Source of the DNA: Nanobdellota archaeon
GTDB taxonomy: Archaea; Nanobdellota; Nanobdellia; Pacearchaeales; GW2011-AR1
Direction: 5' to 3'
Assembly (NCBI GenBank): GCA_020430505.1
Contig: JAGQJT010000001.1
Coordinates: 7,629-71,628, forward strand
DNA: 64,000 nucleotides
The notes beneath the pieces were generated by a model that was not told the origin of the DNA, made no database searches, and saw nothing but the letters and a program-made list of their open reading frames with translations. Shown here piece by piece: positions 4,537-48,255 of this stretch. The position numbers and the translations under genes are program-made. Positions within the stretch are counted from its first letter, which is position 1; each line of letters begins with the position of its first letter.

Positions 4537-5520
4537 TTAAGATTTCAAAAAAGTCTTAGCGACAATTAACGGAAAAACCAAACTAGCTTCAGAGTAAATT
4601 TTTACCTTTTTAGCACTTGGGAGAATTTTCCCCCAAGAAACGGCCTCTTCAGGTAAAGCCCCTGAATCAGAACCATCAAATTCTGGATTTGAATTTATAT
4701 ACACTGCATAATTAGCGCCATTTCTGAACATATTTGCATTGCATATGTGATGTTTTATAACCCCCGCCCCCAAAAGAATTATCCCAGTTTTCTCTGGACT
4801 TAAAGTAGAATTATTCAAGGTCCAAATATCTTCAGCAATATCGACCTTAAAATCTTCGTGTTGAGATTTGAAAAAATAAATCATATCTCCCAAACTTCCA
4901 TCAGTGAGTGCAGGACAATAAACAGGAATTTTATTTTTCCATGACCAATAATAAATACTTTTTTCATCATTTATTTTTTCTCCCAGCTTCCAAATAAGTT
5001 CGCTTGGAGTAACAACTTTCCCTGTTTCTTTTTGCCTTTCATAAAATTCCTTCAAAATAGGCATAATAAAATCTTCAAACTTACAATATCTGGAATTTGG
5101 AACATAGATATTTCCAGCACGATTAATTCCTTTTTCTCTCAGCTCAGAGCCAATAGCTCTAAAGTCCCCTAGCTTAAAATCCCCCAAACACTTTATTATA
5201 TCTTCTTCAATTCCTCCTGCTGTTGTGACCAAAACATTCACTTTTTTATGCTCTGCCAAGTGCCTTATCACATCTCTTAAACCAGAAGTCACAATATTTG
5301 AAGAATAACCAAGATAAATAAAAGCCTTTTCTGAGATCATTTCATTTATAATTTCAATGCCTTCATACATTTTTGATGCTTGAATTCCCGTAGATTTGTA
5401 ACTATCGAGAATTTTATCATAATCTACTCCTTTATTAAAATCATAACCTTCAATAGAAAGACCCTCCGCCTCTTCAGATTCCCGCAATATATTTTCTCTA
5501 GCGACATTTTTATTATTCAT
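4537..5520 (-). CDS. dys: deoxyhypusine synthase
   Basis: 327 aa. Collinear with the DHS family: GYDFNKGVDY..., TTAGGIEEDIIK, GAGVIKHH, SGALPEEAVSWGK. Confidence 0.9.
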   Translation of the reverse strand: MNNKNVARENILRESEEAEGLSIEGYDFNKGVDYDKILDSYKSTGIQASKMYEGIEIINEMISEKAFIYLGYSSNIVTSGLRDVIRHLAEHKKVNVLVTTAGGIEEDIIKCLGDFKLGDFRAIGSELREKGINRAGNIYVPNSRYCKFEDFIMPILKEFYERQKETGKVVTPSELIWKLGEKINDEKSIYYWSWKNKIPVYCPALTDGSLGDMIYFFKSQHEDFKVDIAEDIWTLNNSTLSPEKTGIILLGAGVIKHHICNANMFRNGANYAVYINSNPEFDGSDSGALPEEAVSWGKILPSAKKVKIYSEASLVFPLIVAKTFLKS

Positions 5521-15304: not shown

Positions 15305-15355
15305 TAAAAAATCAAGATAAAGAAGTTTTAAAAGTTGTTGTTGATTAATAAATAC

Positions 15356-15874
15356 ATGGAAAAAATACAGACTCATTTAATCGGAAAAACTTTGACTTCA
15401 AACTCTAAATCAGCTTACCAAATGTCAAAAAAAAGCTATTTTGGAGAAAAAGTAGGGGAGAAAATCCAGTATATGCCTACAGAAGCATTTTATTTATTTG
15501 AAAAAAATCAACTTGAAATCTTTCAAAAGAGCAAAAAACTTCCCAATGAGGAAATTGTAAAAAAACTTCAAAAAATAGACAAGAAATTCCAAGAAAAATA
15601 CATCGTTTTCAAAGATTTAAGAAAGAAAGGGTACATTGTAAAAACGGCTTTAAAATTCGGAGCAGAGTTCAGAGTTTATTCTAAAGGAAAAAAACCAGGT
15701 CAAGAACACGCAAAATGGCTAGTAATCACCGAAAAGGAATCAAACAAAATAAACTGGCATGAATTCTCTTCTAAAAACCGTGTCGCGCATTCAACAAAAA
15801 AGAACTTACTTTTAGGATTAATTGATGAAGAAGGAAAAGTCATTTATTATGAGATTTCCTGGATTAAGCCTTAA
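15356..15874 (+). CDS. endA: tRNA-splicing endonuclease (short homotetramer-type subunit)
   Basis: The ORF track start is TTG, so I use ATG 15356. KKGYIVKTALKFGAEFRVYSKG...HAKWLV catalytic-domain pattern. Confidence 0.8.
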   Translation: MEKIQTHLIGKTLTSNSKSAYQMSKKSYFGEKVGEKIQYMPTEAFYLFEKNQLEIFQKSKKLPNEEIVKKLQKIDKKFQEKYIVFKDLRKKGYIVKTALKFGAEFRVYSKGKKPGQEHAKWLVITEKESNKINWHEFSSKNRVAHSTKKNLLLGLIDEEGKVIYYEISWIKP

Positions 15875-16260
15875 ATTCTCAATCTTTGCAAAGCTATTTC
15901 TGCACTTTCGGACATTTCTTTATCAGGATCCTTCAAAAATCTTTCAACAAAAGGGATAACCCTAGGATCTCCTAAAGTAGCCAAAGCCAAAATTGATTCG
16001 TGTCTAACAAAAAGATTTTCATCTTCTTCAACAGATTTCATCAAATATTTTCCAACTAAATCGCTTCTCCCAGTTTCACCTAAAGAAAAAGCAAACTCAT
16101 GCCTAACTATGGGAGAAGGATCAGTAAATAAACCTTTTACAAGTTTTAAGATATTTTCTTCCTTTACAGCATTCTCTAATTGAAAAGCTGCCTGAATTCT
16201 TTCTTCCATACTTTTTTTCAAATTCAAAACAATCTCACCATAATTATCCTCTCTATCCAT
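15871..16260 (-). CDS. HEAT-repeat protein resembling one half of deoxyhypusine hydroxylase (two His-Glu motifs)
   Basis: 129 aa. PIVRHEFAFSLGE and LFVRHESILALATLGDPRVIPFVERFLKDPD...AEIALQRL are collinear with my recollection of the DOHH N-terminal half. Confidence 0.55.
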   Translation of the reverse strand: MDREDNYGEIVLNLKKSMEERIQAAFQLENAVKEENILKLVKGLFTDPSPIVRHEFAFSLGETGRSDLVGKYLMKSVEEDENLFVRHESILALATLGDPRVIPFVERFLKDPDKEMSESAEIALQRLRI

Positions 16261-16333: not shown

Positions 16334-17251
16334 ATGACAACAAATACAAGAGAAATAAAAAACAAAATCATTAATTCTTTAAAATCAAAAGGCCCACTTT
16401 TACCGGCATATGTTTCAAAGGAGATTGGGATGGACATGCTTTTTACATCCGCATTTCTGTCAGAACTAATCTCAGAAAAAGAAGTCTATTCAAGCCATAT
16501 GAGAGTTGGAAGCTCAGCAATTTATTATCTAGAAGATCAAAAAAATCAGTTGGAGAAATACCAAGAGCATATAAAAGGAAAGGAAAAAGAAGCTCTTCAA
16601 TTACTCAAGGAAAAATCTTTTCTTGAAGACGAAACCCAAGAGGCTCCAATAAGAGTTGCTTTAAGACAAATAAAGGATTTTGCAATTCCATTTGAACATA
16701 ATGATAAAATAATTTGGAGGTATTTTTTAATTTCAGAAAAAGATTACCCTCACATAGAGATTAAAAAAGAAGAAACAAATCTAATCAAAGAAAAAGAAGA
16801 AATAAAAGAGATAAACAAAATAAAAGATGATGCAAAAGAAAAGCCCAAAGAAAACTTGGAAAAATCTAAAGGATCCGAAAAAGGTGAACAAAAACCTTCC
16901 AGAAAGTTCGTTAAAAAGAAGCTTGCAAAAAAAACAGCCTCACAAAAAAAGAATGAAAAATTCTTTGATAAGGTTAAAAATTTCTTAAGTGAAAAAGGAA
17001 TGGAAATAATCGGAATAGAAGGATTCAGCAAAAGCGATCTGATTCTTACAATAAAGAAAAATAATGAAGATTACCTGCTTGTTGCATTTAATAAGAAAAA
17101 AATTTCTGAAGTAGACATACTCAAAGCGCACAAAAAGGCCACAGAAGAAGACAAGAAGTACATGATTTTTAGCTTAGGGGATCTAACAAAGAAGCTAGAG
17201 AACTTCATTGAAGCCATAAGAAACCTCTCAAATATTGAAAAAATTGAATAA
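16334..17251 (+). CDS. hypothetical protein: winged-helix-like N-terminus, K/E-rich linker, possible PD-(D/E)xK-like C-terminus
   Basis: 305-aa ORF. Domain guesses come from pattern only (SDLILT...YLLVAFNKKK). Confidence 0.45.
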   Translation: MTTNTREIKNKIINSLKSKGPLLPAYVSKEIGMDMLFTSAFLSELISEKEVYSSHMRVGSSAIYYLEDQKNQLEKYQEHIKGKEKEALQLLKEKSFLEDETQEAPIRVALRQIKDFAIPFEHNDKIIWRYFLISEKDYPHIEIKKEETNLIKEKEEIKEINKIKDDAKEKPKENLEKSKGSEKGEQKPSRKFVKKKLAKKTASQKKNEKFFDKVKNFLSEKGMEIIGIEGFSKSDLILTIKKNNEDYLLVAFNKKKISEVDILKAHKKATEEDKKYMIFSLGDLTKKLENFIEAIRNLSNIEKIE

Positions 17252-21375: not shown

Positions 21376-22263
21376 ATGGTGGAGTGGTATGTTTTGTCTT
21401 TAATCTCTGCAGTTTTCTCAGCAGGAGCCGCAATTTCCCAAAAGAAAATTCTCTTCAAAGAATCAGCACTAGGATTTTCATTACTAGTGGCATTGTTTAA
21501 TTTAATCTTAGCGATACCTTTCTTTTTCTTCGTTGAGTACACTACACTAACAACCTCGGGAATATTAGTTTTATTCTTAAAATCCACATTAGGAGCAATT
21601 GCATTCTTATTTGTAATGCTTGGAATAAAAAATTTAGAAATAAGTGAAGCCTTGCCTCTTTTAGTTTTGGCACCTGGATTGGTTGCAATATTTGCATTCA
21701 TTTTCTTAGGAGAAAACATAAACAAAATAGAAATCTTAGGATTAATTCTTTTGATAATTGGAACATACCTTCTATCCTTAAAAGAAAAACAAAAAATAAA
21801 AACTCCTTTCAAAAAAGCCTTCAGTAAAAAAGGCCATTATTACATAATATTCGCTTTGATTATTTTTACCATAACTTCAATCTTAGATAAAGCAGTTTTG
21901 AACAAATTCAAAATTCCTCTAAACGCATTTATGGGTCTTCAGCATCTTTTCTTCGCAATAGTTTTCATAGGATTACTCTTTGTCACAGGAAAGAAAATTG
22001 AATTTAAATCTGCACTAAAAAATTCATGGGCATGGATTGCATTGGTTGCACTTTTTACAATTACCTATAGGTACACCCATCTTTTGGCAATAAAGAGCAC
22101 TTCAGTTGCGTTGGCCTTGTCAATAAAAAGGATTTCGGTATTTCTCGCAGTTGCCGTGGGAGGTGCATTGTTCAAAGACAAGAATCTCATAAGAAAAATA
22201 ATTGCAACGGTCATAATAATTGCAGGAGCATTATTGATAATCAACGGGCAAAACTGGTTATAA
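21376..22263 (+). CDS. EamA/DMT-superfamily transporter
   Basis: 295 aa, about 10 TM, two-fold internal EamA-like repeat pattern. Confidence 0.75.
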   Translation: MVEWYVLSLISAVFSAGAAISQKKILFKESALGFSLLVALFNLILAIPFFFFVEYTTLTTSGILVLFLKSTLGAIAFLFVMLGIKNLEISEALPLLVLAPGLVAIFAFIFLGENINKIEILGLILLIIGTYLLSLKEKQKIKTPFKKAFSKKGHYYIIFALIIFTITSILDKAVLNKFKIPLNAFMGLQHLFFAIVFIGLLFVTGKKIEFKSALKNSWAWIALVALFTITYRYTHLLAIKSTSVALALSIKRISVFLAVAVGGALFKDKNLIRKIIATVIIIAGALLIINGQNWL

Positions 22264-23077
22264 GCGAAATTCCTTTCGCCCTTTTAGTCAAACCTTTTTT
22301 TGCTTCAGGAATATCTTCCCTGAGGGATTCTTTCAAATAATTCAAAACTTTTTTCCTTCTTTTTCTCAAACTCTCTGTTGAATTCACACAAGGTCCACCA
22401 ATACAAGCCCCGACACAAAAATTACAATCTAAAAATCTGGTATTTTTATCAGGCTTATCAAGGAATTTCATCACTCGACTTATTCCATCAATAACTTTTA
22501 TTTCTTTTTTCTTGAGGACATTTTTCAAATGAGCTGTCTTAGAAAGCCCTCCTCCAAGAGGATAAACTTTGGTATAATCATTGTAAAATTTATCAAAGTG
22601 CATCTTTTTCTTTGCATTTAAATTAATTTTATTTTTTTCAAAAAGAGATTTTAATTCTCTGTAATCTACAACATAATCAACAAATTTGGATTTCTTCGCT
22701 TCTTCTTTTTTATAATTACAAGGAGAAATAAACACAGTCTTATGTTTAGGATATACCTTTTTACAAATTTTGGACATGGCAATCATCGGACTATCAACTT
22801 GAATTAAGTTTTTTTTATATTGAGGGTATTTATCCAAAACAACACTAACAACTCCAGGACAAGCAGTAGAAATAAAAAAACCCTCTTTTTGTAATTCTTT
22901 GTAATAGGCCTGATTAACAAGTTTTGCTCCAAAAGTCAACTCAACAACCTTATCAAAACCAAATTTTTTCAAGCCGTAAATCATTCCAGGATATGGAAAA
23001 TCCACGACGAAACTTGGAGCAACCATTGCCACAAATTTTCCTTTCAAAGGGAATTTCAGTTTACGATCTTTTTTCAT
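22241..23077 (-). CDS. minimal [FeFe]-hydrogenase-like protein (H-domain only)
   Basis: 278 aa. FISTACPGVV (cf. TSCCPGW), FISPCNYKKEEA (cf. MPCxxKxxE), FCVGACIGGP (cf. CxGGCxxGGG). N-terminal VAMVAPSF...LKKFGFDKVVELTFGA. Confidence 0.6.
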   Translation of the reverse strand: MKKDRKLKFPLKGKFVAMVAPSFVVDFPYPGMIYGLKKFGFDKVVELTFGAKLVNQAYYKELQKEGFFISTACPGVVSVVLDKYPQYKKNLIQVDSPMIAMSKICKKVYPKHKTVFISPCNYKKEEAKKSKFVDYVVDYRELKSLFEKNKINLNAKKKMHFDKFYNDYTKVYPLGGGLSKTAHLKNVLKKKEIKVIDGISRVMKFLDKPDKNTRFLDCNFCVGACIGGPCVNSTESLRKRRKKVLNYLKESLREDIPEAKKGLTKRAKGISLITSFAR

Positions 23078-28245: not shown

Positions 28246-31200
28246 TCATCCTTTACTAGCTCTATTTGGCTTATTCTGTTCAAACCATTGATAAACTGCA
28301 TCTTGAGTTTCTTGATTAATTCCCTGTCTTGAAAAAAATTCATTAAGAGTAATGACTTCATAACCAAGATCCACATAGTGATAAACATCTTGAAAATCAA
28401 TCTTCAAATCATTTGGATTTACATAAAAACTAGAGGAATCTCCAAAACCTTGCTGAAAAGATTCTGAAGAAGTAGGAAGAGTCCCATCTTGCCATTTCCA
28501 ACCAGCTAATTCATAAAACTGCATTAGCTTATCATATTCCTCTTGAGTATAAACATTAACAGCCACATTATCCATAGCAGTTAAAGTAAAACTAACATCT
28601 GGAATTGTACTTCCAGAACCACTTACAGCACCCTTAGAAATTAAATAATCAATTACTTCTTGATTTTCTTCTTCAATTGCATAATCCAATGCAGTTTTGC
28701 CTTCATTATCTACGGCATTTACATTCGCACCACTTTCTACAAGGTATTTAACAATCTCGAAATAGTCCAAATAAACAGCTGTAATTAAAGAATTCCTTCC
28801 CTTATAATCATCCTCTCTCTTTGCTTCAATATCTGCACCATTCTCCACCAAAATTTTTACAGTATTCAAAGAATTTTGATCAACAGCCCAAAGTAAAGGA
28901 GTAAAACCATTCTTATTGGTGGTCTCTATATTAGCACCTTTTTCAAGAAGGTATTCAACAATTTCCCAATTATCATATAAGCTAGCCAAATGTAAGGGTT
29001 TTAGCCCCCCTCCATCACCAGAGCATTCTGAATCCACTGAAACTCCTTGCATAACCAAAGACTTAACTAAATTTAGGTTTCCTTCTATGGAAGCATCACA
29101 TAATTGATCAACCTTTGAACCAGAATTTCCTCCAATCCCATTCGCTTTGTTTTCTTCCAACATTTGTTTAACATCAGTAGGAATATCGTTCTCCCTATTA
29201 AACCATCCAAAAAAAGCCCCTTCCCCTTTAACATCAGAACATTGATCCTCTGTCAACAAATCTTGATTACAAATTTCGTCTATAAAATCTGTGTTGACTG
29301 CAGAATCAGAGTAAGTCCCTTGCAATTGACCTGCTCTCTTTATTGCAGAATCATAATTCCACACTGTAACTAAAGGTTGATACTCATGCCCTTCTTCAAG
29401 ATAAGAAATAAGTTCTGGAACAATATCCTCTCCATTACGTCCTTTTGACTTAAGTTCATTATACTTTGATACTTCAAGAAGGCCATCTGTTCTCAATTTC
29501 TCAAGCCCAAAATTTAAATCCCCTGATTTCGCTCTTTCTAAATCAAAATAATTTCCTTCTCCAATTAGTTCTGCTTTCAAGATTGCCGAAGGCACACCCC
29601 ATTTACCTGCATTAACTTCATTATATCTTACAATCAACATTTCCTTAACATCATCAAAATTATTTGCTCCATTTGCCAATTTTTCAAAAAAGTTTGAACC
29701 TCCTTTAACATCTATACACTGTGCTTCCGTCAAAATATATTCACTAGAACTCACAACAGAAGACCTGCAAATTTCATCAATAATCTCTTTATTTTGAGGT
29801 CTATCCTCGTCAGTATATTTCCCACTTAAAGGTCTGATCTGTTCTATTGCAGTTTCAATAGTCAAATCCTTAAAATAGTTCTCTCCTTCATAAACATTAG
29901 GAAGGCCTTCTAGATTTAAAGAAAATAAATATTTTGCACCCTTCACAAAGTCAAAATTATCATCTTTAATTTTCTTGATTGCCGCCTTCTCCCTTGCAGT
30001 AAACTTTGGATTATTATCTAAGGTATCTTCATTTCTTAAAGAAGAGTAATATTTATCTCCAGACCTTTTAAATACCCATTCATCCTCGACAAATTCAAAA
30101 GAGACTTTTTTATAATTGCTAAATCCACCTACCTCAAAAACTTTTTTATCATCCATTCTCGTACTCTGAGAATCTAGATTATTTCCCAATTCTACAGCTT
30201 TATTTATCAAAAGAGATAAACCCTCATCATAATTTTTGTCTTGTAATTCAAGAATTATTTTTGAATATTTGTCTCTAGGAGTTTTTCTTCCATAACTATC
30301 TTCAAAAGTTTTCGTATCCACCCATTCAACAGTAATATACTCATTAACCAATCCAGAACCAGAAACATCTAAATCAAGAGTTGTGCCAACAACATCACAA
30401 TTCATTGACCAATGCCATTCATTATTAAAAAATTTGAAACACATGTTCCTCATTTGAATCTTTGAAGAGGTACTAGGATCAACAACATTGTCCAAAGCCT
30501 CATTCAAATCTTCTGTTTCTTGAGCGACTTGTTCTTCCCCATTAATATCTACGCCATCTCCTATAGGCTCCCAATACATATAAACTGGGTGAGAATTGTC
30601 TCCAAGATTAAGAGTAAATTTTCCAAAGATCCTATTTCCTTTTTCATCATGCTGGTTCCAATCAAAGACTTCTGCAACATAATTTTCTTCGTCAATCCAT
30701 TTAAGAAAGATTATATTATGAGGAGTCTTATAATCTAAAGCAATAGATAGGATATCTCCTTCTTTTAATGCTCCCAACTTTTCAGAAGCAGAAAGATCCA
30801 AAGTAGATTTTTGCTTATTTAAAGTACAACTCTTCATAGGTTGATCATTGGCTTGAAAGATAATTGCACCATAAGCATTTTCAGTTTCACTTATTTTGAT
30901 AATATTTCCTGAAAGAGAATAAGATTTTCCTTTACCATCAGAATAAACACAATTTTTGTCCACATTTGCATATTGATAAATTGCTAAAACAGAATCATGA
31001 CAAGTAATCACACCACTATTATCACAATCCCCAATCTCAGCCTTATCGACAATTCTTCCATTAAAATATTCTACAGCAGCCAAAACTCTCTCACGAGGAT
31101 TAGAATTACCCAAAATTTCTTTTTTCTTTTCCTCTTTTTCCTTAGCAGCCGCAGCTTCTCTCTCTGCCTTTTGTTGCGCTAAAACTTTCTGGTATTCATT

Positions 31201-34200
31201 AAAAGATCCCTTAGTCAAGTCTCTATAAGCATTTCCTCGGAGATAATATAAATAAGCCTTTTGTGAGTTAAAAAACATCTTTCCAACAATTGAATCAATA
31301 AAATTTATTCTCTTGATAGGGTTAGATTCTAGTTTCAATGTTTCAACAGCTTCTTTAAATTGCCCCTCTCCAAAGTAATCAGTATTGTTAGGATTATTTT
31401 CTAAATTATCTTGGAAGTATTTTTCTAATTCACTTAAAGTTTGACCTTCTGTGTAGTTAAAAACAACTGCATCACCCACACTACTTTTATCTAACCAACA
31501 TCTTATTTCAGTGTCACCACAATATCCCACATCCACCCACCTTTCAGGATTGGAACCAGAACCAGGATTATTTGAAGCGCAAATTCTTTGAATCCCTTGG
31601 TTGTAAATCTTTGGATCAATCAAATCACTCGCAGTTTCTTCAAGATTCGGATTCAATAGATTGTAGAAACTAGCTGTTCCAGAAATACAAGCCTTTTGTG
31701 TCTTTATGTCCGTTTGAGTTGCTTGTTGCTTTACATATTGATCTTGAACATAATCTATAGCAAAACTTGTTGAGACTTCTTGGAAACCACATTCCTCTTG
31801 ATCATTTACTCTTATACACAACTCTTTAAATCCTGAAGGTGCAGTAAAATCAACTGTTTGAGTTTCATAATCTCCTTTAGGGATATAACCCGAATCAACA
31901 TTTCTTACATTACCGAAAAGAACCCCATCTTGATAATAAGAAGACTGTGAGCTTTCTCTTAAATAAACTTTATAATATGCCCCCCTATCATTTCCAGCAT
32001 AAATATGGTAAAAAACCTTGTAATGAGAACTTGGAGGATTAGTAACAGTACTATAGGGAATTTCTTCAAATTTGCCTGTGAATTGAGGAGGTGAATCTGG
32101 CTCTGTTAGAGAATCTAGAATACTAACTCCTCCAGGATAAGTTGCGGAAATAAAAGTTTTACAAGCCGCAGTTCCAACCTCTTCAGAGCTTCTTGCTTTA
32201 AATGCCTTGTATGAATCAGCTGCATAATACTGTGTAAAATAAGAGACAGAGTCTTGTGCATTTTGCCAAGCAGATTGAACCCCCAAATATTCTCCTCCAC
32301 CATGAGAATTTTGACCTAGTACAGTGCTTAAAATTTTTGGGACCGCCAAATTTGCTAAAGGCAATGCTTGTCTCCAAAAAAACTCGCACATATATACACT
32401 ATGAATCTCATCACATATTCCAACAGTTTCCCCAGTTTCCAGATTAGTTTGCAAACAATCTCTGTAAGAATCCATAACAGAAACCCACCCATCTAAACCT
32501 GCTTTAACCCCACTTAAACAAACAGGGACATAAATCCCTTCTTTAGCGTTTGGCAAACATAAAGCAACACTTCCAACGATTCCCGTTTGTATAACATCTT
32601 TGACGGGATAAGCTCCTCCAAAATCACATCTACTTGAAGGACAAATTACAGGATCACAAACATTAAATAAAACTTTACAATCTGAAGGAGACATAAAGTC
32701 AGTACACTCTACAGAGGGCACATTTGTAGCAGGACTTCCAACTCCAACAATCCCTCCATCTGGAAGAGTAATTCTTTTAACCCCAGACTTATACTGTCTT
32801 GATGCAGCTTCTATAGCACTAACTGCTTTGTTAACCAATCTAGAAGATTCAGATTCAGTCAACCCAGGAAATTGATTATAAGGCTGCCCAGTTCCCAAGT
32901 TCACTAATTCACAGACATCATCTTTTTGATTTGAATTAAATTCTTCATAGCCATTTGGACCAACATTACAAAGCCAGAAACTATTGATTCTTCCTGAAAC
33001 ATCATAACTATTTATTCCTCCCAAAACTGCAACTTTCTGCTGCACATAAGCATACCATCCATTATCTTTATCAAAAGGCACAACTGCAGGCAATCCTTGG
33101 TAAGGCTCTTCTTCATAATATCTCACAATAACATCTTTTTCTCCTGGAGAAGGATTAAACTTATTGTTATAACTAGTGGAATCTAAAACTCTGAAATCAA
33201 TCTTAAGTAATTTATCTAACCTCGTTTTATCGGTAACCCTAGTTCCAGTAAAGTCATAAATCAAGTAAGAAGAAGTGCCATCATTTTCTATATGTTGTTT
33301 AATTGGATAAACGCCTGTTTTTATAGAATCATCCAAAATGAACAAGAAAAATCCATCACTTGTTTGAATTCCTTGAACCGGAGTCGATAAAGGAAGATTA
33401 TATTCATTATCAATAACCGAACTCCATTTATCAAGAGTATTTCCCTTATAATATTCTTGAATTCTTCCTTCTTCTGTTGTTACATAAGAAAAATCAGAAG
33501 CAGAGATTCCTGTTCCTTGAAGAGCATCATTTATTTGAAGGAAACTATCGGAATTTTCTTTCAATCTAGAAGACAAATCATAAAGTTTTTTCAGATATTT
33601 TTCATCTCCGGTTTGCTGATATAATCTATAGTAAAGGTCAAAATTTTTCAAATCTTCCAAATTGTAATACCCCTTGTTAAAAGAGTCTTCTCCAGAAAAA
33701 ATTGTTGACATATCGGAAGTCAGAACATACTGGCTAGAATCATCCGGATTTTGAATTGAACCAATATTAACATTGGAAATAACTGACTGGGCATATTCGC
33801 CCACAAAACTTTCTGTGTCAACAACATTATCTCCAAATATTTTTAGTTGATTCGGAATAAGATGTTTATCTTGAATATTTTTTATGTTCTCATTTTGAGA
33901 TTTTATCGTCTGGTAAACAGAATTCACTTCCTTGTTTATTGTGTCTGCGTTCTGGAAATAACAATTTTCTTGTGAAGCATAATTACCTGCAGAAACCTCA
34001 CCAGCACAATGTTCTGTCCATCCTCCACTACTCCTCATAACCATTTGTCTTGCAATTGATTTCCCATCAGCATTTTGGATAAAATTCTTTACAGTTAATG
34101 CTGCGCCAACTCCTAAACAAGCCGCTTTCATATCCTTAACAACAACACCTAAATTATCTGAAAACTTCTTCCAATCTTCAACTTGCTTATTTAATTTCTC

Positions 34201-36423
34201 AACAAGACTTTCTACCTTTTCAGGAGCTAATTGAATTGCTCTCTTTTCAATACCAATGTTAAAATTAAAATCAGAATAAGACCTTTGATATTTTTGTTCA
34301 GGGATAATTGAAATTTTTGCTTGTTTTTTAAGATTTATTTTGGTTACTTTTATCACGACATTATCTCCTAGAGTCTTAGGATCATTTAAATTAAAATTTC
34401 TTTCTATGCTTACAAACCTATTGTAAAAGGAATCGTTAGCTACATAGACCTTTAAAGTTGCAGAATCAATATCCAAACCAGTAAGTTCTATGTATTCCCC
34501 AGAAGAGATGTTAATTGTTCGCCTTTCATCTTTGTCCAAATTAAATGAGGTTGTAGTTCCATCAGAAAATTTAACCAATACAGAAACCCCATAATCTTCA
34601 AAAGAAGGTTCATCAATCTTAACAAGAGAAATACTATGCAACTCCCCGTCTATCAAAACATCATATTTTGAATTTGAAGAGCTATAGAAAGAAACATCTT
34701 TTTCACATCCAACCGAATCCACTAATTCGGGATATAATTCTTTAAACTCGCTACAAATTTCAAGAACCTCAAAAGATTGACCAAGGAATTTAGCCAAATC
34801 AATTTTTTCCTTAAAAGATTCAAGAGACAATTCCTGACTTTCATAAGTTTCGTCAGGATAGTCTTCAATAACTCTTTCATAGCTTTGCTTGGATTCTCCA
34901 TAATATTCCGAAGTATTTATATTCAAATCCAAAGTGTCCCCAATTCCAAGTCCATTAAGAATTATAATGTGATCTTTAATTTCATTTAAAGAGCTACTTT
35001 CTCCGACGACGATCTTGATTACATCATCGCCAGTTCTTATTCCTTCTTCAATATCTAAAATATCCCCCTTAAGAGTTCCAAAATCTTCTTCAAAACTTTC
35101 AACAAGAGTCAATCCCTTATCAGTAGCCCTATCTTTGTAATTGGCCATTTTTTCAAGATAATCATATTGGGATTCACTAATGACCTCTCCAACTTTCTCA
35201 GGAGTTAAGTAAATATACGCCTGAAGATCCTTGGGATTATTTGAAGAACCAGAAAACTTTGCATACCCTAAGTACATGTGCTTTCCCTCATCTTCAGAAT
35301 ACCCAAGATAATCTCCTACATGATAGTTCTCTTGTTGATCATCAATAGTTAAATTTACTTGAGGAGAAATGAATAGAGTTTTCATGGCATCTGATTCCCA
35401 AAAAGTAGAGTCATCCTCCTTGCAATAAACTTCAACTCTTTGATTTATTCCATCTTTTCCGATACTATTCTTAACAATATGGCATCTATTATCTAAAAAT
35501 TTATCTCCCTCTTGAAGAGTGTAATATTCTGAATCAACTTTCAAAACAGCTCTTGTGTCGGGATTAACAAGCTCATCCAATTTTATTTGCAAACCCGCAA
35601 AACAATAAAGCCCAGGCAAGTAAACAACACTTGAAGAAGCTCCCTCCGCCAATCTGAAGGAACCATATTTTCTTTTCTCATCAGTACGTCCTTCAAAAGA
35701 ACCTCTATAAACATCTGAATAAACAACTATTGTTGCAGAATTACTATCTACTCCTTCAACAGCCAAATAGCCTCTTCCATCCCAAAAACTATATTGATTC
35801 TTAATCTTGTCCCACTCAGAATAAGACATTTCTGGAATGAAAAAAGTATTCTCTCCAATTCCAAAAGAATTTTGGATATCATACCTTATTGTAGCATTAA
35901 TAGTTCCCTTAACAAAATCTGGCATTGAACTTTCATTTTGATTTTGTCTTAACATTACAACAGCATAACCAATATTTTCATAAGTAGGATTTTCAACTTT
36001 ATCTGAACTTCCATAAAATCCAAGAAATTGTGAAGATAAAGCTGCTTTGTTTGGGATAAATCCGATTGTACGGACTTCTCTAGGATAATTTCCTCCAAAA
36101 GTTATTGAATCTATTTGAGAAACATCAATAAAAGGATTAATTTTAGTGGCTCTTATAGGACAAAAAACAGGAACATCCTGTTCTTCTAACAAATCACTTC
36201 TAACTGGAACAGGAGAGCATCCTGTAGCATCTATTTGAAGAAGAAAATCCTGACTTTGTTCACACATACTTGTATCCCACTCCAAGCTAGGAGAACCAAA
36301 AGAGCTATATGTTCCCCCATAGTAATATTTAGGGTTTGAAGCAGAATAACTTGCAGCTAGGGAGACCAATGAAAAGAAAACTCCCAACAAAATCAAAAAT
36401 AGAATCAAATTATTTTTTTTCAT
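28246..36423 (-). CDS. giant secreted surface protein (2,725 aa) with Cys-rich core and C-terminal ankyrin repeats
   Basis: One uninterrupted 8.2-kb ORF. Sec-type signal MKKNNLILFLILLGVFFSLVSLAAS. Ankyrin repeats at 28627-29112. Most of the length is unassignable by eye. Confidence 0.9.
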   Translation of the reverse strand: MKKNNLILFLILLGVFFSLVSLAASYSASNPKYYYGGTYSSFGSPSLEWDTSMCEQSQDFLLQIDATGCSPVPVRSDLLEEQDVPVFCPIRATKINPFIDVSQIDSITFGGNYPREVRTIGFIPNKAALSSQFLGFYGSSDKVENPTYENIGYAVVMLRQNQNESSMPDFVKGTINATIRYDIQNSFGIGENTFFIPEMSYSEWDKIKNQYSFWDGRGYLAVEGVDSNSATIVVYSDVYRGSFEGRTDEKRKYGSFRLAEGASSSVVYLPGLYCFAGLQIKLDELVNPDTRAVLKVDSEYYTLQEGDKFLDNRCHIVKNSIGKDGINQRVEVYCKEDDSTFWESDAMKTLFISPQVNLTIDDQQENYHVGDYLGYSEDEGKHMYLGYAKFSGSSNNPKDLQAYIYLTPEKVGEVISESQYDYLEKMANYKDRATDKGLTLVESFEEDFGTLKGDILDIEEGIRTGDDVIKIVVGESSSLNEIKDHIIILNGLGIGDTLDLNINTSEYYGESKQSYERVIEDYPDETYESQELSLESFKEKIDLAKFLGQSFEVLEICSEFKELYPELVDSVGCEKDVSFYSSSNSKYDVLIDGELHSISLVKIDEPSFEDYGVSVLVKFSDGTTTSFNLDKDERRTINISSGEYIELTGLDIDSATLKVYVANDSFYNRFVSIERNFNLNDPKTLGDNVVIKVTKINLKKQAKISIIPEQKYQRSYSDFNFNIGIEKRAIQLAPEKVESLVEKLNKQVEDWKKFSDNLGVVVKDMKAACLGVGAALTVKNFIQNADGKSIARQMVMRSSGGWTEHCAGEVSAGNYASQENCYFQNADTINKEVNSVYQTIKSQNENIKNIQDKHLIPNQLKIFGDNVVDTESFVGEYAQSVISNVNIGSIQNPDDSSQYVLTSDMSTIFSGEDSFNKGYYNLEDLKNFDLYYRLYQQTGDEKYLKKLYDLSSRLKENSDSFLQINDALQGTGISASDFSYVTTEEGRIQEYYKGNTLDKWSSVIDNEYNLPLSTPVQGIQTSDGFFLFILDDSIKTGVYPIKQHIENDGTSSYLIYDFTGTRVTDKTRLDKLLKIDFRVLDSTSYNNKFNPSPGEKDVIVRYYEEEPYQGLPAVVPFDKDNGWYAYVQQKVAVLGGINSYDVSGRINSFWLCNVGPNGYEEFNSNQKDDVCELVNLGTGQPYNQFPGLTESESSRLVNKAVSAIEAASRQYKSGVKRITLPDGGIVGVGSPATNVPSVECTDFMSPSDCKVLFNVCDPVICPSSRCDFGGAYPVKDVIQTGIVGSVALCLPNAKEGIYVPVCLSGVKAGLDGWVSVMDSYRDCLQTNLETGETVGICDEIHSVYMCEFFWRQALPLANLAVPKILSTVLGQNSHGGGEYLGVQSAWQNAQDSVSYFTQYYAADSYKAFKARSSEEVGTAACKTFISATYPGGVSILDSLTEPDSPPQFTGKFEEIPYSTVTNPPSSHYKVFYHIYAGNDRGAYYKVYLRESSQSSYYQDGVLFGNVRNVDSGYIPKGDYETQTVDFTAPSGFKELCIRVNDQEECGFQEVSTSFAIDYVQDQYVKQQATQTDIKTQKACISGTASFYNLLNPNLEETASDLIDPKIYNQGIQRICASNNPGSGSNPERWVDVGYCGDTEIRCWLDKSSVGDAVVFNYTEGQTLSELEKYFQDNLENNPNNTDYFGEGQFKEAVETLKLESNPIKRINFIDSIVGKMFFNSQKAYLYYLRGNAYRDLTKGSFNEYQKVLAQQKAEREAAAAKEKEEKKKEILGNSNPRERVLAAVEYFNGRIVDKAEIGDCDNSGVITCHDSVLAIYQYANVDKNCVYSDGKGKSYSLSGNIIKISETENAYGAIIFQANDQPMKSCTLNKQKSTLDLSASEKLGALKEGDILSIALDYKTPHNIIFLKWIDEENYVAEVFDWNQHDEKGNRIFGKFTLNLGDNSHPVYMYWEPIGDGVDINGEEQVAQETEDLNEALDNVVDPSTSSKIQMRNMCFKFFNNEWHWSMNCDVVGTTLDLDVSGSGLVNEYITVEWVDTKTFEDSYGRKTPRDKYSKIILELQDKNYDEGLSLLINKAVELGNNLDSQSTRMDDKKVFEVGGFSNYKKVSFEFVEDEWVFKRSGDKYYSSLRNEDTLDNNPKFTAREKAAIKKIKDDNFDFVKGAKYLFSLNLEGLPNVYEGENYFKDLTIETAIEQIRPLSGKYTDEDRPQNKEIIDEICRSSVVSSSEYILTEAQCIDVKGGSNFFEKLANGANNFDDVKEMLIVRYNEVNAGKWGVPSAILKAELIGEGNYFDLERAKSGDLNFGLEKLRTDGLLEVSKYNELKSKGRNGEDIVPELISYLEEGHEYQPLVTVWNYDSAIKRAGQLQGTYSDSAVNTDFIDEICNQDLLTEDQCSDVKGEGAFFGWFNRENDIPTDVKQMLEENKANGIGGNSGSKVDQLCDASIEGNLNLVKSLVMQGVSVDSECSGDGGGLKPLHLASLYDNWEIVEYLLEKGANIETTNKNGFTPLLWAVDQNSLNTVKILVENGADIEAKREDDYKGRNSLITAVYLDYFEIVKYLVESGANVNAVDNEGKTALDYAIEEENQEVIDYLISKGAVSGSGSTIPDVSFTLTAMDNVAVNVYTQEEYDKLMQFYELAGWKWQDGTLPTSSESFQQGFGDSSSFYVNPNDLKIDFQDVYHYVDLGYEVITLNEFFSRQGINQETQDAVYQWFEQNKPNRASKG
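28627..29112 (-). other. ankyrin-repeat region (about 4 repeats) of the giant protein
   Basis: GLKPLHLASLYDNWEIVEYLLEKGANIETTNKNGFTPLLWAV...VKILVENGADIEAK...VKYLVESGANVNAVDNEGKTALDYA. Confidence 0.85.
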
Positions 36424-38276
36424 TTAAAATTTACCTCAACTTTTTTATTTTCGTACAAAATGTAATTGTTTTGCAAATCATCAAGAGAGTTCACCTCGGG
36501 AAGACTTTCAAAATTCAATTCCACATAATTTGAATTCTTTAATTCACTTTCTGAAATGAAATAACTTGTAGAACCTCCTCCAGACAAAACCTGTGAAACA
36601 ATTTGCTCAGGAATTGTGATCTCAAAACACTCTTGTTTTTTGGCCCCGAAAAAAGCCCCAATTCCAGTTGCTGGAACATCAACACATTGTTCTTGAGTTG
36701 TTTCTGCAAGGCTCAAAGAAGAATTTTTGTAGGTGGAAATTTGTATTTCATAATCTCCTTCTGAAAGCACCACTTCCTTGCTATTTGGGATTAAGATTGT
36801 TTGTGAATCTTCCAAAGAATTAAAAGTAACAATAGCATTTCCATTGTAAACTTGTCCATCTTTTTTCAATACAATTTCTTTAGAATATTCTTTATCCAAG
36901 AAAATGGAAATGCTTCCCTCATTTACACTACTATAAATTGAACTTGAATCCTTATAACCATCAGCAGTTATAATCAACTCTCCATTTACACATTGAGGCA
37001 AGTTTGCAATTAAAGAACCATTAGAAACTCCCGTTTCCCCTATAGAACATTTATTTCCAGAACACTCGTAAGAGATACTTGCTTCCACAGGACTACCTTG
37101 ATAATCTGAAACACTTATAGAAGTTTTCGAAAAACTATCCGAACAAATGTCTATTTGATTCCCTTGCTGAGCAATCCCTTCTGCAGGCTCTCTAGGGAGA
37201 TTTCCTCTTATCACAACTGCAACAGGAAATTGAAAAATTTCATCACCACTATAAACTTGGATTAAAGTTGGATAAGCCAGATTATAAACAAAATGATATG
37301 TAGTATAACAAAAACCCAAAATTCCTAACCCTTGTTGATTCCCAACAGGATCTGCAATCAAAAGAGAACCTTCACTAGGGTTAACTTCAAAACTATACGG
37401 CCAATCTTTAGAATAAATAAATCTAAAATTATTTTTTACTGCACTATCTACTTTAAAATAATCATTTTCTGTACCCTCACCTTTTATTGAAAGAGTATTA
37501 ATCTCTATTCCTTCCTTTAAATCTTCAAAGATTTTCTCTGCTCCCCAAGTCATAGGAGAACAACTTATTTCAACGCCATCTACAGGAGCATATAACCTCA
37601 TAAAATCAACAGCATAATTTTCTAAGAATAAACTTTTCTGTTCTTGATTATATAATTCAATAGCGTCGTCGTATAGTTCACCCAATTTAGAATCAACAAC
37701 TTTGCTATGTTTTTCAAGGACATAAGAAGACTCTCCTTTTGAAATAGACAATTTCAAATCAATATCAACTATTATTTCACTATTATCAATTTTAACATCA
37801 AGATTCATGCCATTTAAATCCCTCACCACCCCATAACCTTGGGAAGAATATTCTTCAAAATCACAATTTTTTATTTGATTTGATAAATATCTTTCCAATT
37901 CCCCCTCCATAAAACTTTTTGTTGGAACTTGTTCTTTTGCAATATTTCCTCCTGAAACATAATACCAGTAAGGAATTTCATTTCCCACAAAATCCAAATG
38001 CGAAGAAAAAGGCATATAAGTAGATCCTGATTCAAATTCAGTAGGATAAATGTACCCTGCACCCGAACCCAAAAGGCGAGAACCTACTAAAACTTTTTCA
38101 TTAACACAATCCAAAAAACTATTTTCTATTGGACTTACAAAATCTGGAACACTGCCTCCTATCCTCGTGGTGTTCCTAAATAAAAAATAAGCTCCAACAA
38201 TTGCTATAATTATTATAGCAATTATAATAAAAACTGTAACTTGCCCTCTTTTTCCTCTCTTTAACAACATAATCAA
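36420..38276 (-). CDS. exported protein with class III (type IV pilin-like) signal peptide, coupled to the giant gene
   Basis: 618 aa. N-terminus MIMLLKRGKRGQVTVFIIIAIIIIAIVGAYFLF (K/R-G-Q plus hydrophobic helix). Its stop overlaps the giant gene start (ATGA). Confidence 0.75.
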   Translation of the reverse strand: MIMLLKRGKRGQVTVFIIIAIIIIAIVGAYFLFRNTTRIGGSVPDFVSPIENSFLDCVNEKVLVGSRLLGSGAGYIYPTEFESGSTYMPFSSHLDFVGNEIPYWYYVSGGNIAKEQVPTKSFMEGELERYLSNQIKNCDFEEYSSQGYGVVRDLNGMNLDVKIDNSEIIVDIDLKLSISKGESSYVLEKHSKVVDSKLGELYDDAIELYNQEQKSLFLENYAVDFMRLYAPVDGVEISCSPMTWGAEKIFEDLKEGIEINTLSIKGEGTENDYFKVDSAVKNNFRFIYSKDWPYSFEVNPSEGSLLIADPVGNQQGLGILGFCYTTYHFVYNLAYPTLIQVYSGDEIFQFPVAVVIRGNLPREPAEGIAQQGNQIDICSDSFSKTSISVSDYQGSPVEASISYECSGNKCSIGETGVSNGSLIANLPQCVNGELIITADGYKDSSSIYSSVNEGSISIFLDKEYSKEIVLKKDGQVYNGNAIVTFNSLEDSQTILIPNSKEVVLSEGDYEIQISTYKNSSLSLAETTQEQCVDVPATGIGAFFGAKKQECFEITIPEQIVSQVLSGGGSTSYFISESELKNSNYVELNFESLPEVNSLDDLQNNYILYENKKVEVNFK

Positions 38277-40927: not shown

Positions 40928-41257
40928 TTACATTGATTTCAAAACTGAATCAATTTTACTCTTTAGCATATCTTCTGAAGCATAACCTACATGTCTTGCA
41001 ACTTCTTCGCCTTTATTCAAAAAGACCAGCGTCGGTATCCCTTGAATTTCAAATTTCATCGCCAAACCTTCTTGAGCTTGCGTATCAAGTTTTAGAAAAT
41101 TCATCTTCCCTTCAAACTCTTTACTCAAACCTTCAAAAACAGGTTTCATCATCTGACAAGGTCCGCACCAATCAGCGTAAAAGTCTACAACAGAAGGCAC
41201 ACTAGAGTTTTCTACTTCTTCTTCATAGTTCTCTAAAGTCAATTGTTTTGTAGCCAT
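40928..41257 (-). CDS. trxA: thioredoxin
   Basis: 109 aa. VVDFYADWCGPCQMMKP active site. AGGAG lies 8 nt upstream of the ATG. Confidence 0.9.
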   Translation of the reverse strand: MATKQLTLENYEEEVENSSVPSVVDFYADWCGPCQMMKPVFEGLSKEFEGKMNFLKLDTQAQEGLAMKFEIQGIPTLVFLNKGEEVARHVGYASEDMLKSKIDSVLKSM

Positions 41258-47838: not shown

Positions 47839-48255
47839 ATGAAAAACAAGACAAAATACACAATAATCTTAATTTTAATGTTAGTTGCAACAGCAATGTC
47901 TCTTGTTTTATCCTTCATGCCTCTTGAACAAGCTTGCGGAGAAAATGGAAGCTGCACAATAGTTCAAACTTCAAAATATGAAACAACATTCGGAATAAAG
48001 ACCGCCCATATTGGACTAATTGCATTCCCAATTTTAGCATTAATAGCAATCTTTGAATTGAAAAAGAAAAGAAAATATCAAAGAAAATTACTCAATTTGG
48101 GCATAGTTGTCGGAAGTGCATTCGCTCTTTATTTTCTTTATCTTCAATTTTTTATACTTAAAGCAATTTGCAAATACTGTTTGGTTGCAGACATTGCAAC
48201 ACTTATAAGCTTGGGAATAATTCTTTTCTGGGAAGAAAAAAACATAATAAAATGA
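47839..48255 (+). CDS. vitamin K epoxide reductase (VKOR) family protein
   Basis: 138 aa, 4 TM. Loop Cys pair CGENGSC. Active-site CKYC at the start of the last helix. Confidence 0.7.
   Translation: MKNKTKYTIILILMLVATAMSLVLSFMPLEQACGENGSCTIVQTSKYETTFGIKTAHIGLIAFPILALIAIFELKKKRKYQRKLLNLGIVVGSAFALYFLYLQFFILKAICKYCLVADIATLISLGIILFWEEKNIIK

Follow-up and report, generated by a model that had tools for sequence, protein, structure and literature searches.

The stretch analyzed here, hereafter the window, is a 64,000-nucleotide segment (G+C content 31.5%) of contig JAGQJT010000001.1 from a Nanobdellota archaeon. At 15871..16260, on the minus strand, it carries an ATG-to-TAA open reading frame (ORF) of 129 product codons, which we describe as a half-size gene resembling that of deoxyhypusine hydroxylase (DOHH; EC 1.14.99.29, KEGG K06072) on the basis of the ORF itself, Pfam, AlphaFold2 (AF2), phmmer and Foldseek. 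The 129-aa protein reported in a first-pass annotation of this DNA is the exact translation of this ORF. An identical product is present in other assemblies, with the same boundaries drawn by independent gene callers. In Pfam, the protein passes the gathering cut-offs for HEAT_2 (2.5e-14; 53.8 bits, threshold 27.7) and HEAT_PBS (1.9e-6; 28.3 bits, threshold 20.9). The AF2 model, computed from an alignment of 53 homologs, has a predicted local distance difference test score (pLDDT) of 97.9 and consists of eight helices arranged as four hairpins. The protein thus has HEAT hairpins of the PBS-lyase type, the repeat from which DOHH is built. In the curated libraries, it matched generic repeat families alone and no DOHH-specific model, and NCBI names the identical protein a HEAT repeat domain-containing protein, with a Nanoarchaeota (DPANN) metagenome as its labelled source.

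Two putative metal-ligand motifs, both encoded on the minus strand, are found in the inner helices. The first, S49-PIVRHEFAFSLG-E62 (16075..16116), includes H54-E55 in inner helix 4 (16096..16101; ctcatg, reverse complement CAT GAG) and aligns with H56-E57 and H207-E208 of human DOHH. The second, F84-VRHESILALATL-G97 (15970..16011), includes H87-E88 in inner helix 6 (15997..16002; ttcgtg, reverse complement CAC GAA) and aligns with H89-E90 and H240-E241. A further pair, E118-S119, lies in the last inner helix (15904..15909, minus strand). Judged by group consensus, this pair is common to DOHH and not to generic HEAT proteins; its DOHH counterparts are E-T-C in the N half and E-S-C in the C half.

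To assess conservation, we searched 5.8 billion clustered proteins (E <= 1e-5) and took the best 120 of the 213 homologs returned (56–100% identity, 122–159 aa). H54, E55, H87 and E88 are invariant (120/120), and hence the His-Glu motifs to which the first-pass annotation had drawn attention are conserved in orthologs. Around the first motif, S49, I51-E55, A57, F58 and L60-E62 (R53 and G61 included) are also invariant; around the second, the invariant positions are F84, V85, H87, E88, A92, T95 and L96. R21, I22 and F26 (120/120) and E118 are likewise unchanging, and S119 is retained in 119 of the 120. When invariant residues were tallied in the 53-sequence alignment, 23 of 27 fell on the inner helices (2, 4, 6 and 8) that line the concave face of the AF2 model, and one fell on an outer helix. 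This is the same pattern as in DOHH, whose inner surface carries the active site (PMC3306375).

For comparison, we drew on 77 generic HEAT proteins, which gave 400 in-register four-repeat units. His-Glu was present in 3/400 at each site and in 1/400 at both sites; the single unit with both came from a long multi-repeat HEAT protein. At these columns, which follow a conserved V-R, the generic units are hypervariable, with R, S, A, E or K and no preference among them. The 129-aa protein departs from this generic pattern, with His-Glu invariant where generic units vary. Compared column by column, R21, F26, S49, both His-Glu pairs, an aromatic residue at 58 (four after the His) and E118-S/T119 are common to the family from DPANN archaea, to tandem relatives from Heimdallarchaeota and to both halves of eukaryotic DOHH, but do not appear in the generic consensus.

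In a phmmer search of all PDB sequences, the protein matched human DOHH (4d4z_A) at E = 5.9e-24, with the N half (13-134, 44.1 bits) and the C half (168-283, 41.7 bits) each aligning to query residues 5-127. The first-pass annotation had aligned the protein by eye to one half of DOHH, with both His-Glu motifs in matching helices. The phmmer alignment reproduces this, covers both human halves end to end, and places the motifs in register with each. In the full-length human DOHH sequence used in our scripts, the two key blocks are identical to the PDB alignment. When the AF2 model was compared with the PDB by Foldseek, the top hit was 4d4z (TM 0.89, root-mean-square deviation [rmsd] 1.5 Å, 126 columns, 27% identity), versus TM ~0.80 and rmsd 2.3–2.8 Å for the designed alphaReps. 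Among natural proteins of solved structure, human DOHH is the nearest in both sequence and fold. Matches to eS12 in the PDB (E ~0.4) were taken as chance.

These comparisons bear on the idea that the protein is a non-catalytic small HEAT/PBS-lyase-like adaptor, as are MTH187 and the natural templates of the alphaReps, in which His-Glu would serve binding or stability. The Pfam matches, generic only, and the NCBI name would suit such a protein, as would generic HEAT scores equal to those for eukaryotic DOHH halves (given below). Moreover, an artificial alphaRep fusion heads the PDB matches when these are ordered by total E-value. The alphaReps owe their high totals, however, to the summing of several identical designed units, five repeats of one unit in the case of the top fusion. 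Per domain, among the alignments listed, DOHH scores 44.1 and 41.7 bits versus <=30 for the alphaReps. MTH187 (1te4), a natural small archaeal HEAT protein of 131 aa and hence of the same size class, reaches only E = 0.57, and YibA 0.011. More broadly, the generic small HEAT proteins (MTH187 1TE4, the alphaReps, YibA 1OYZ, CpcE/F, NblB) share with the window protein the repeat type and the Pfam families, but they lack His-Glu pairs, are weaker per domain and form continuous solenoids. The universal His-Glu of the 120 homologs, at columns hypervariable in generic HEAT units, speaks against an adaptor, as do tandem relatives predicted to fold as the DOHH dyad and not as a solenoid (see below). 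We regard an adaptor role as very improbable.

To see how the family relates to other HEAT proteins, we searched 1.84 billion representative proteins with a profile and re-scored the 120 matches at E <= 1e-30 per domain. The 150 matches listed are those with at least ~119 total bits, such that single-domain generic proteins at 48–119 bits fall outside; among them, four tiers are evident. Archaeal half-size proteins score 122–198 bits. Tandem proteins of 244–292 aa with four His-Glu motifs follow at 80–134 bits, and then proteins of ~300–420 aa, 36–54% identical to human DOHH, at 60–75 bits. Long generic HEAT proteins, essentially without His-Glu, reach <=47 bits. Cluster look-ups assigned the tandems to Heimdallarchaeota, Kariarchaeaceae or Asgard archaea, and the ~300-aa group to eukaryotes (Trichuris, and Dirofilaria "Dohh"). 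In three longer chains, namely P0162 (626 aa, Dirofilaria immitis Dohh), P0176 (671 aa) and P0200 (756 aa), the two-domain DOHH-like region is embedded in additional sequence; these may be fusions or gene-model errors.

Where named, the best 120 homologs come from Pacearchaeota, Woesearchaeota or Nanoarchaeota. Several members carry the automatic KEGG Orthology (KO) name "deoxyhypusine monooxygenase" in JGI/IMG, whereas in NCBI they are named as HEAT repeat proteins. One genome per GTDB species was scanned for the pattern, which yielded 46 loci, mostly from DPANN archaea, with others from Heimdallarchaeota, Bathyarchaeia and Marsarchaeota. Identity to the window protein is 43–53% for the Heimdallarchaeota-labelled proteins and 34–39% for those of Bathyarchaeia and Marsarchaeota (L040, L042, L044 and L045). 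One 60%-identical half-size gene (L017, 5980..6381) is in a metagenome-assembled genome (MAG) labelled "bacterium" (C4_metabat.bin.111), probably a DPANN contig that was wrongly labelled or binned. In the Nanoarchaeota genome H51-bin082 (L031, 5995..6395), the DOHH-like gene is frameshifted into 52-aa and 90-aa pieces, either as a pseudogene or by assembly error.

Heimdallarchaeia hold both forms of the gene. Half-size copies are found at L032 (5986..6381, 131 aa), L033, L034 and L039, and near-identical half-size genes occur in archaeal MAG loci without a further label (L036, L037). The tandem fusions are 244–265 aa in length and contain four His-Glu motifs; one example, L038 (3713..4477; protein P0330), has 254 aa. 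A further search gave ~45 tandem homologs, the named ones being from Heimdallarchaeota or Kariarchaeaceae. These tandems (P0330, and P0121 and P0122 from Kariarchaeaceae) are the closest relatives outside DPANN, and they share with the window protein the His-Glu motifs and the signatures I-Q-A-x-F, S-L-G-E and E-S-A-E-I-A-L. The proteins of Bathyarchaeia (L040, 5857..6390; L042, 1580..2113) and Marsarchaeota (L044, 5863..6378; L045, 674..1186) have two His-Glu motifs each, in the same register (P-L-T-R-H-E-A-A-F-T-L-G-Q and P-I-V-R-H-E-S-A-V-A-L). Unlike the window protein, they fall in a size class of 154–202 aa (170–177 aa for these four loci) with an extra N-terminal HEAT repeat (~40 residues), and they have G-Q after the first motif, as does eukaryotic DOHH. 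A search with a Marsarchaeota query recovered ~57 relatives, in Marsarchaeota, a Thermoprotei-labelled MAG, Bathyarchaeia, Heimdall archaea and DPANN.

The tandem proteins connect the half-size family to DOHH. An hhalign comparison matched the half-size profile to the tandem C half along its whole length (probability 100%, 42% identity), and in the reciprocal hidden Markov model (HMM) comparisons described below the tandem halves score 126–135 bits. A template-free model of tandem P0330 (pLDDT 97.4, predicted TM score [pTM] 0.93) superposes on full-length human DOHH 4d4z with TM 0.84 and rmsd 3.3 Å over 275 columns, versus TM 0.33–0.45 and rmsd >11 Å for the eight-repeat solenoids alphaRep-7, YibA and CpcE. 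Hence, the fused Heimdall relatives are predicted to form the face-to-face dyad specific to DOHH. Phylogenetic analysis by neighbour-joining, a simple method applied here to a short alignment with modest support, is suggestive only. It groups DPANN with Heimdall proteins (bootstrap 0.75), Heimdall half-size proteins with tandem C halves (0.65), and the N and C halves of eukaryotic DOHH with each other (0.74); Bathyarchaeia and Marsarchaeota form a separate clade (0.87). Full-length alignment, common His-Glu and signature positions and the 0.75 grouping together place the window protein in an archaeal DOHH-like clade. From sequence comparison, homology to DOHH is well supported, via the Heimdall intermediates and the signature positions, and the half-size family is best described as a distinct branch beside eukaryotic DOHH. 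The N and C halves of the Heimdall tandems never cluster together in the tree. Eukaryotic halves cluster mutually and never with Heimdall N or C halves (0.0), so the Heimdall and eukaryotic fusions look independent, as far as a short alignment and a simple method can tell.

Eukaryotic DOHH (human, PDB 4D4Z; yeast Lia1) is a single chain whose eight HEAT repeats make up two four-repeat domains that form a symmetrical dyad (PMC3306375, PMC9117371). Its hairpins are of the HEAT_PBS type, and each domain carries His-Glu on the inner helices of its second and third repeats. The window protein shares these features within a half. It differs in having 129 aa, four repeats and two His-Glu motifs, versus ~300 aa, eight repeats and four motifs, as well as in lacking the inter-domain linker, in its archaeal host and in having an activity that is predicted only. 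Each DOHH half is thus matched in its His-Glu content, with two motifs per chain rather than four, and homodimerization would be needed to make the eight-repeat dyad. The Heimdall tandem, as a single-chain fusion, is predicted to form the dyad alone. Because these fused relatives are predicted to form a dyad and the half-size subunit has the same inner surface, a C2 homodimer is the simplest way for the latter to function.

The protein could also be catalytic and DOHH-like without being a symmetric homodimer, either by pairing with a divergent HEAT partner or by holding a mononuclear site in one subunit. Within the Heimdall tandems, the two halves have diverged from each other, and the C half groups with half-size proteins at the bootstrap of 0.65 given above, which argues that asymmetry is tolerated or even useful. 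On the other hand, no second paralog that might act as hetero-partner was found in the window or next to the gene at the 46 related loci, and the three ligands per subunit correspond to one iron's share of the DOHH site (PMC9117371). We consider such an arrangement improbable.

On balance, we favor the view that the protein works as a di-iron deoxyhypusine hydroxylase in the form of a homodimer, with aIF5A that has been modified by deoxyhypusine synthase (DHS) as its substrate, and rate this function, which we infer from sequence and model, as rather probable. Homodimerization, iron binding, use of O2 in a hydroxylase activity, and aIF5A as substrate are each predicted on the same basis. The two subunits would pair via their conserved concave faces, as the two domains of the eukaryotic enzyme do. 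H54, H87 and E88 of both subunits would supply the six di-iron ligands, equivalent to H56/H89/E90 and H207/H240/E241 of the human enzyme, while E55 and E88 would touch the deoxyhypusine amine. The center would activate O2 through a peroxo-diiron(III) intermediate and hydroxylate the aIF5A-bound aminobutyl chain at C2, giving hypusine. In DOHH, the His-Glu motifs bind the di-iron center and the substrate (PMC9117371, PMC3306375), deoxyhypusine is bound by E57, E90 and their C-half equivalents, and the hydroxylation chemistry has been summarized (PMC9117371).

A number of observations weigh against this assignment, beginning with the total-bit floor of the profile search noted above. In reciprocal HMM comparisons, the window protein scored 85.1 bits with eukaryotic N halves, 78.8 with C halves and 85.0 with generic HEAT segments, although the generic set comprised the most query-like segments and behaves as an idealized consensus, making the test weak in both directions. 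These scores indicate that the backbone of the family lies close to an idealized HEAT_PBS consensus and that eukaryotic DOHH is a divergent branch. The first-pass annotation had asked whether the best match would be to a catalytic or a scaffold HEAT protein: per-domain sequence scores and fold favor DOHH, and the reciprocal HMM test is neutral. Each of the refuting checks suggested there that was carried out gave a favorable or a neutral result. With the His-Glu columns masked, the log-odds discriminant gave the family a mean of -26, compared to +141 for eukaryotic DOHH and -111 (maximum -58) for generic proteins. Likewise, bootstrap support for separating generic from His-Glu proteins in the neighbour-joining tree is 0.57, falling to 0.20 without the His-Glu columns. 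Invariant G61 carries no weight, as it is a generic HEAT feature present in 360/400 units.

Genomic context adds to these points. DHS is encoded in the window, at 4537..5520 on the minus strand (Pfam DS 2e-112, full length), just as the first-pass annotation said. This enzyme would install deoxyhypusine on aIF5A and so supply the proposed substrate. That annotation also pointed to the shared window, which does not hold up as evidence of function. The two genes are 10 kb apart and not operon-linked, and no DHS was found within flanks of <=6 kb on each side of the gene in the 46 related loci. The neighbourhood is not conserved with DHS or with aIF5A in these loci. Since no DHS was found in these flanks, we rejected co-location with DHS as functional evidence. 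An aIF5A-like ORF near the DOHH-like gene was seen in 1/46 loci (L004, 10409..10825; 139 aa, G-K-H-G-x-A-K), ~4 kb downstream, and the G-K-H-G motif of aIF5A did not occur in any frame of the 64-kb window, which does not encode aIF5A. The pathway context expected of a DOHH is nonetheless at hand, with DHS in the window and aIF5A provided by the universality of both proteins in archaea (PMC5178350).

Taxonomic distribution and physiology also raise doubts. No members were found in Sulfolobales, Thermoproteales or other hypusine-containing crenarchaea, the search being one that needs shared 5-residue words and so leaves absence unproven. Because this search recovered no member from crenarchaea in which hypusine has been chemically detected, the family would not be a general archaeal answer. 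Nor did any DOHH-like protein co-purify with Sulfolobus aIF5A (PMC6105217). Furthermore, the organism may be anaerobic or fermentative, which is awkward for an O2-dependent enzyme. Such a lifestyle is hinted at by the presence in the window of a short [FeFe]-hydrogenase-like protein (22241..23077, minus strand; Fe_hyd_lg_C 1e-41). This protein has partial H-cluster-like Cys motifs (S-T-A-C-P-G, S-P-C-N-Y-K-K-E-E and C-N-F-C-V-G-A-C-I-G-G-P-C), and it may be a minimal hydrogenase or Nar1-like. By contrast, among the groups that hold relatives, Marsarchaeota are described as aerobic. The named tandem forms are from Kariarchaeaceae and Heimdallarchaeota, some with predicted-aerobe status; Kariarchaeaceae and Hodarchaeales are predicted aerobes (bioRxiv 10.1101/2024.07.04.601786).

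Several of these points would equally suit a true DOHH relative that binds metal via His-Glu but has another substrate, whether a different protein or a small-molecule amine, or that carries out a metal-dependent reaction without O2. They are the missing linkage to DHS or aIF5A, the possibly anaerobic organism with its Fe_hyd_lg_C protein, the position of the family outside the eukaryotic DOHH cluster in both discriminant and tree, and its absence from the crenarchaea with known hypusine that were searched. Yet the residues reported to bind deoxyhypusine (PMC9117371) are invariant in the 129-aa family, and several more inner-surface positions are common to the family and DOHH. Moreover, DOHH has no other known substrate (PMC9117371). 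Since all archaea have DHS and aIF5A (PMC5178350), the substrate should be available to the 129-aa protein. We therefore see a different substrate as unlikely and retain deoxyhypusine on aIF5A as the probable target of the enzyme.

The DOHH-like gene is flanked by archaeal housekeeping genes, namely those for leucyl-tRNA synthetase (LeuRS), tRNA intron endonuclease, ribosomal protein S17e, a HIT protein, aminoacyl-tRNA synthetases, TFB, TFE, SRP54/FtsY and RadA. The tRNA intron endonuclease gene (15335..15874, plus strand) is convergent with the DOHH-like gene, and the two overlap by 4 bases (15871..15874), both stops lying within TTAA. On the other side, a 305-aa Lys/Glu-rich ORF (16334..17251, plus strand) is divergent from the DOHH-like gene and has no Pfam match; a syntenic counterpart with 43% identity is present in L001. 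That locus, whose DOHH-like gene is 81% identical, is the sole one to keep the order of tRNA intron endonuclease, LeuRS, S17e and HIT genes. Elsewhere in the window, a giant 2725-aa ORF (28246..36423, minus strand) encodes ankyrin repeats toward the C-terminal end (Ank_2 7e-31) and is otherwise without a Pfam match. Upstream of it, and overlapping it by 4 nt, lies a 618-aa ORF (36420..38276, minus strand), also without a Pfam match. A VKOR-family protein (47839..48255, plus strand) and a thioredoxin (40928..41257, minus strand) are possible disulfide-bond formation machinery in this DPANN genome.

DOHH has been described as absent from archaea, or as having no identified archaeal orthologue (PMC3306375, 2012; PMC5178350, 2016; PMC6105217, 2018), in agreement with the remark in the first-pass annotation that an archaeal enzyme for the hydroxylation step is poorly established. 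In our literature search, which combined DOHH or hypusine with DPANN, Asgard and Heimdallarchaeia, no article on an archaeal DOHH came up, and the sole paper returned concerns spermine and thermospermine synthases. Neither the window protein nor the Heimdall tandem DOHH-like proteins were mentioned in the papers searched. The similarity is visible to pipelines, since automatic annotation in IMG gives some members the DOHH KO name. It has therefore already been seen by software, with no published discussion that we found.

We conclude that the 129-aa protein is a strong candidate for an archaeal DOHH, a function predicted from its sequence. The archaeal hypusine pathway is unsolved, and a concrete, easily expressed candidate of this size makes the question directly testable. 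If the protein is indeed a homodimeric DOHH, it would be a minimal symmetric HEAT-repeat di-iron oxygenase, useful for studies of mechanism and structure. We also put forward, more tentatively and at somewhat less than even confidence, that a half-size homodimer was the ancestral DOHH, that DPANN and Heimdallarchaeia carry out full hypusination, and that the tandem and eukaryotic enzymes arose by independent fusion. Heimdallarchaeia include the closest known relatives of eukaryotes. If true, an O2-dependent modification of the translation machinery would have existed in the archaeal lineage nearest eukaryotes before eukaryogenesis. The occurrence of half-size and fused forms in Heimdallarchaeia, some of them predicted aerobes, would tie the emergence of the complete hypusine pathway of eukaryotes to the adaptation of archaea to oxygen. 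The protein is small and the assay established, and the outcome would inform both the archaeal side of hypusine synthesis and the question of how the eukaryotic enzyme arose.

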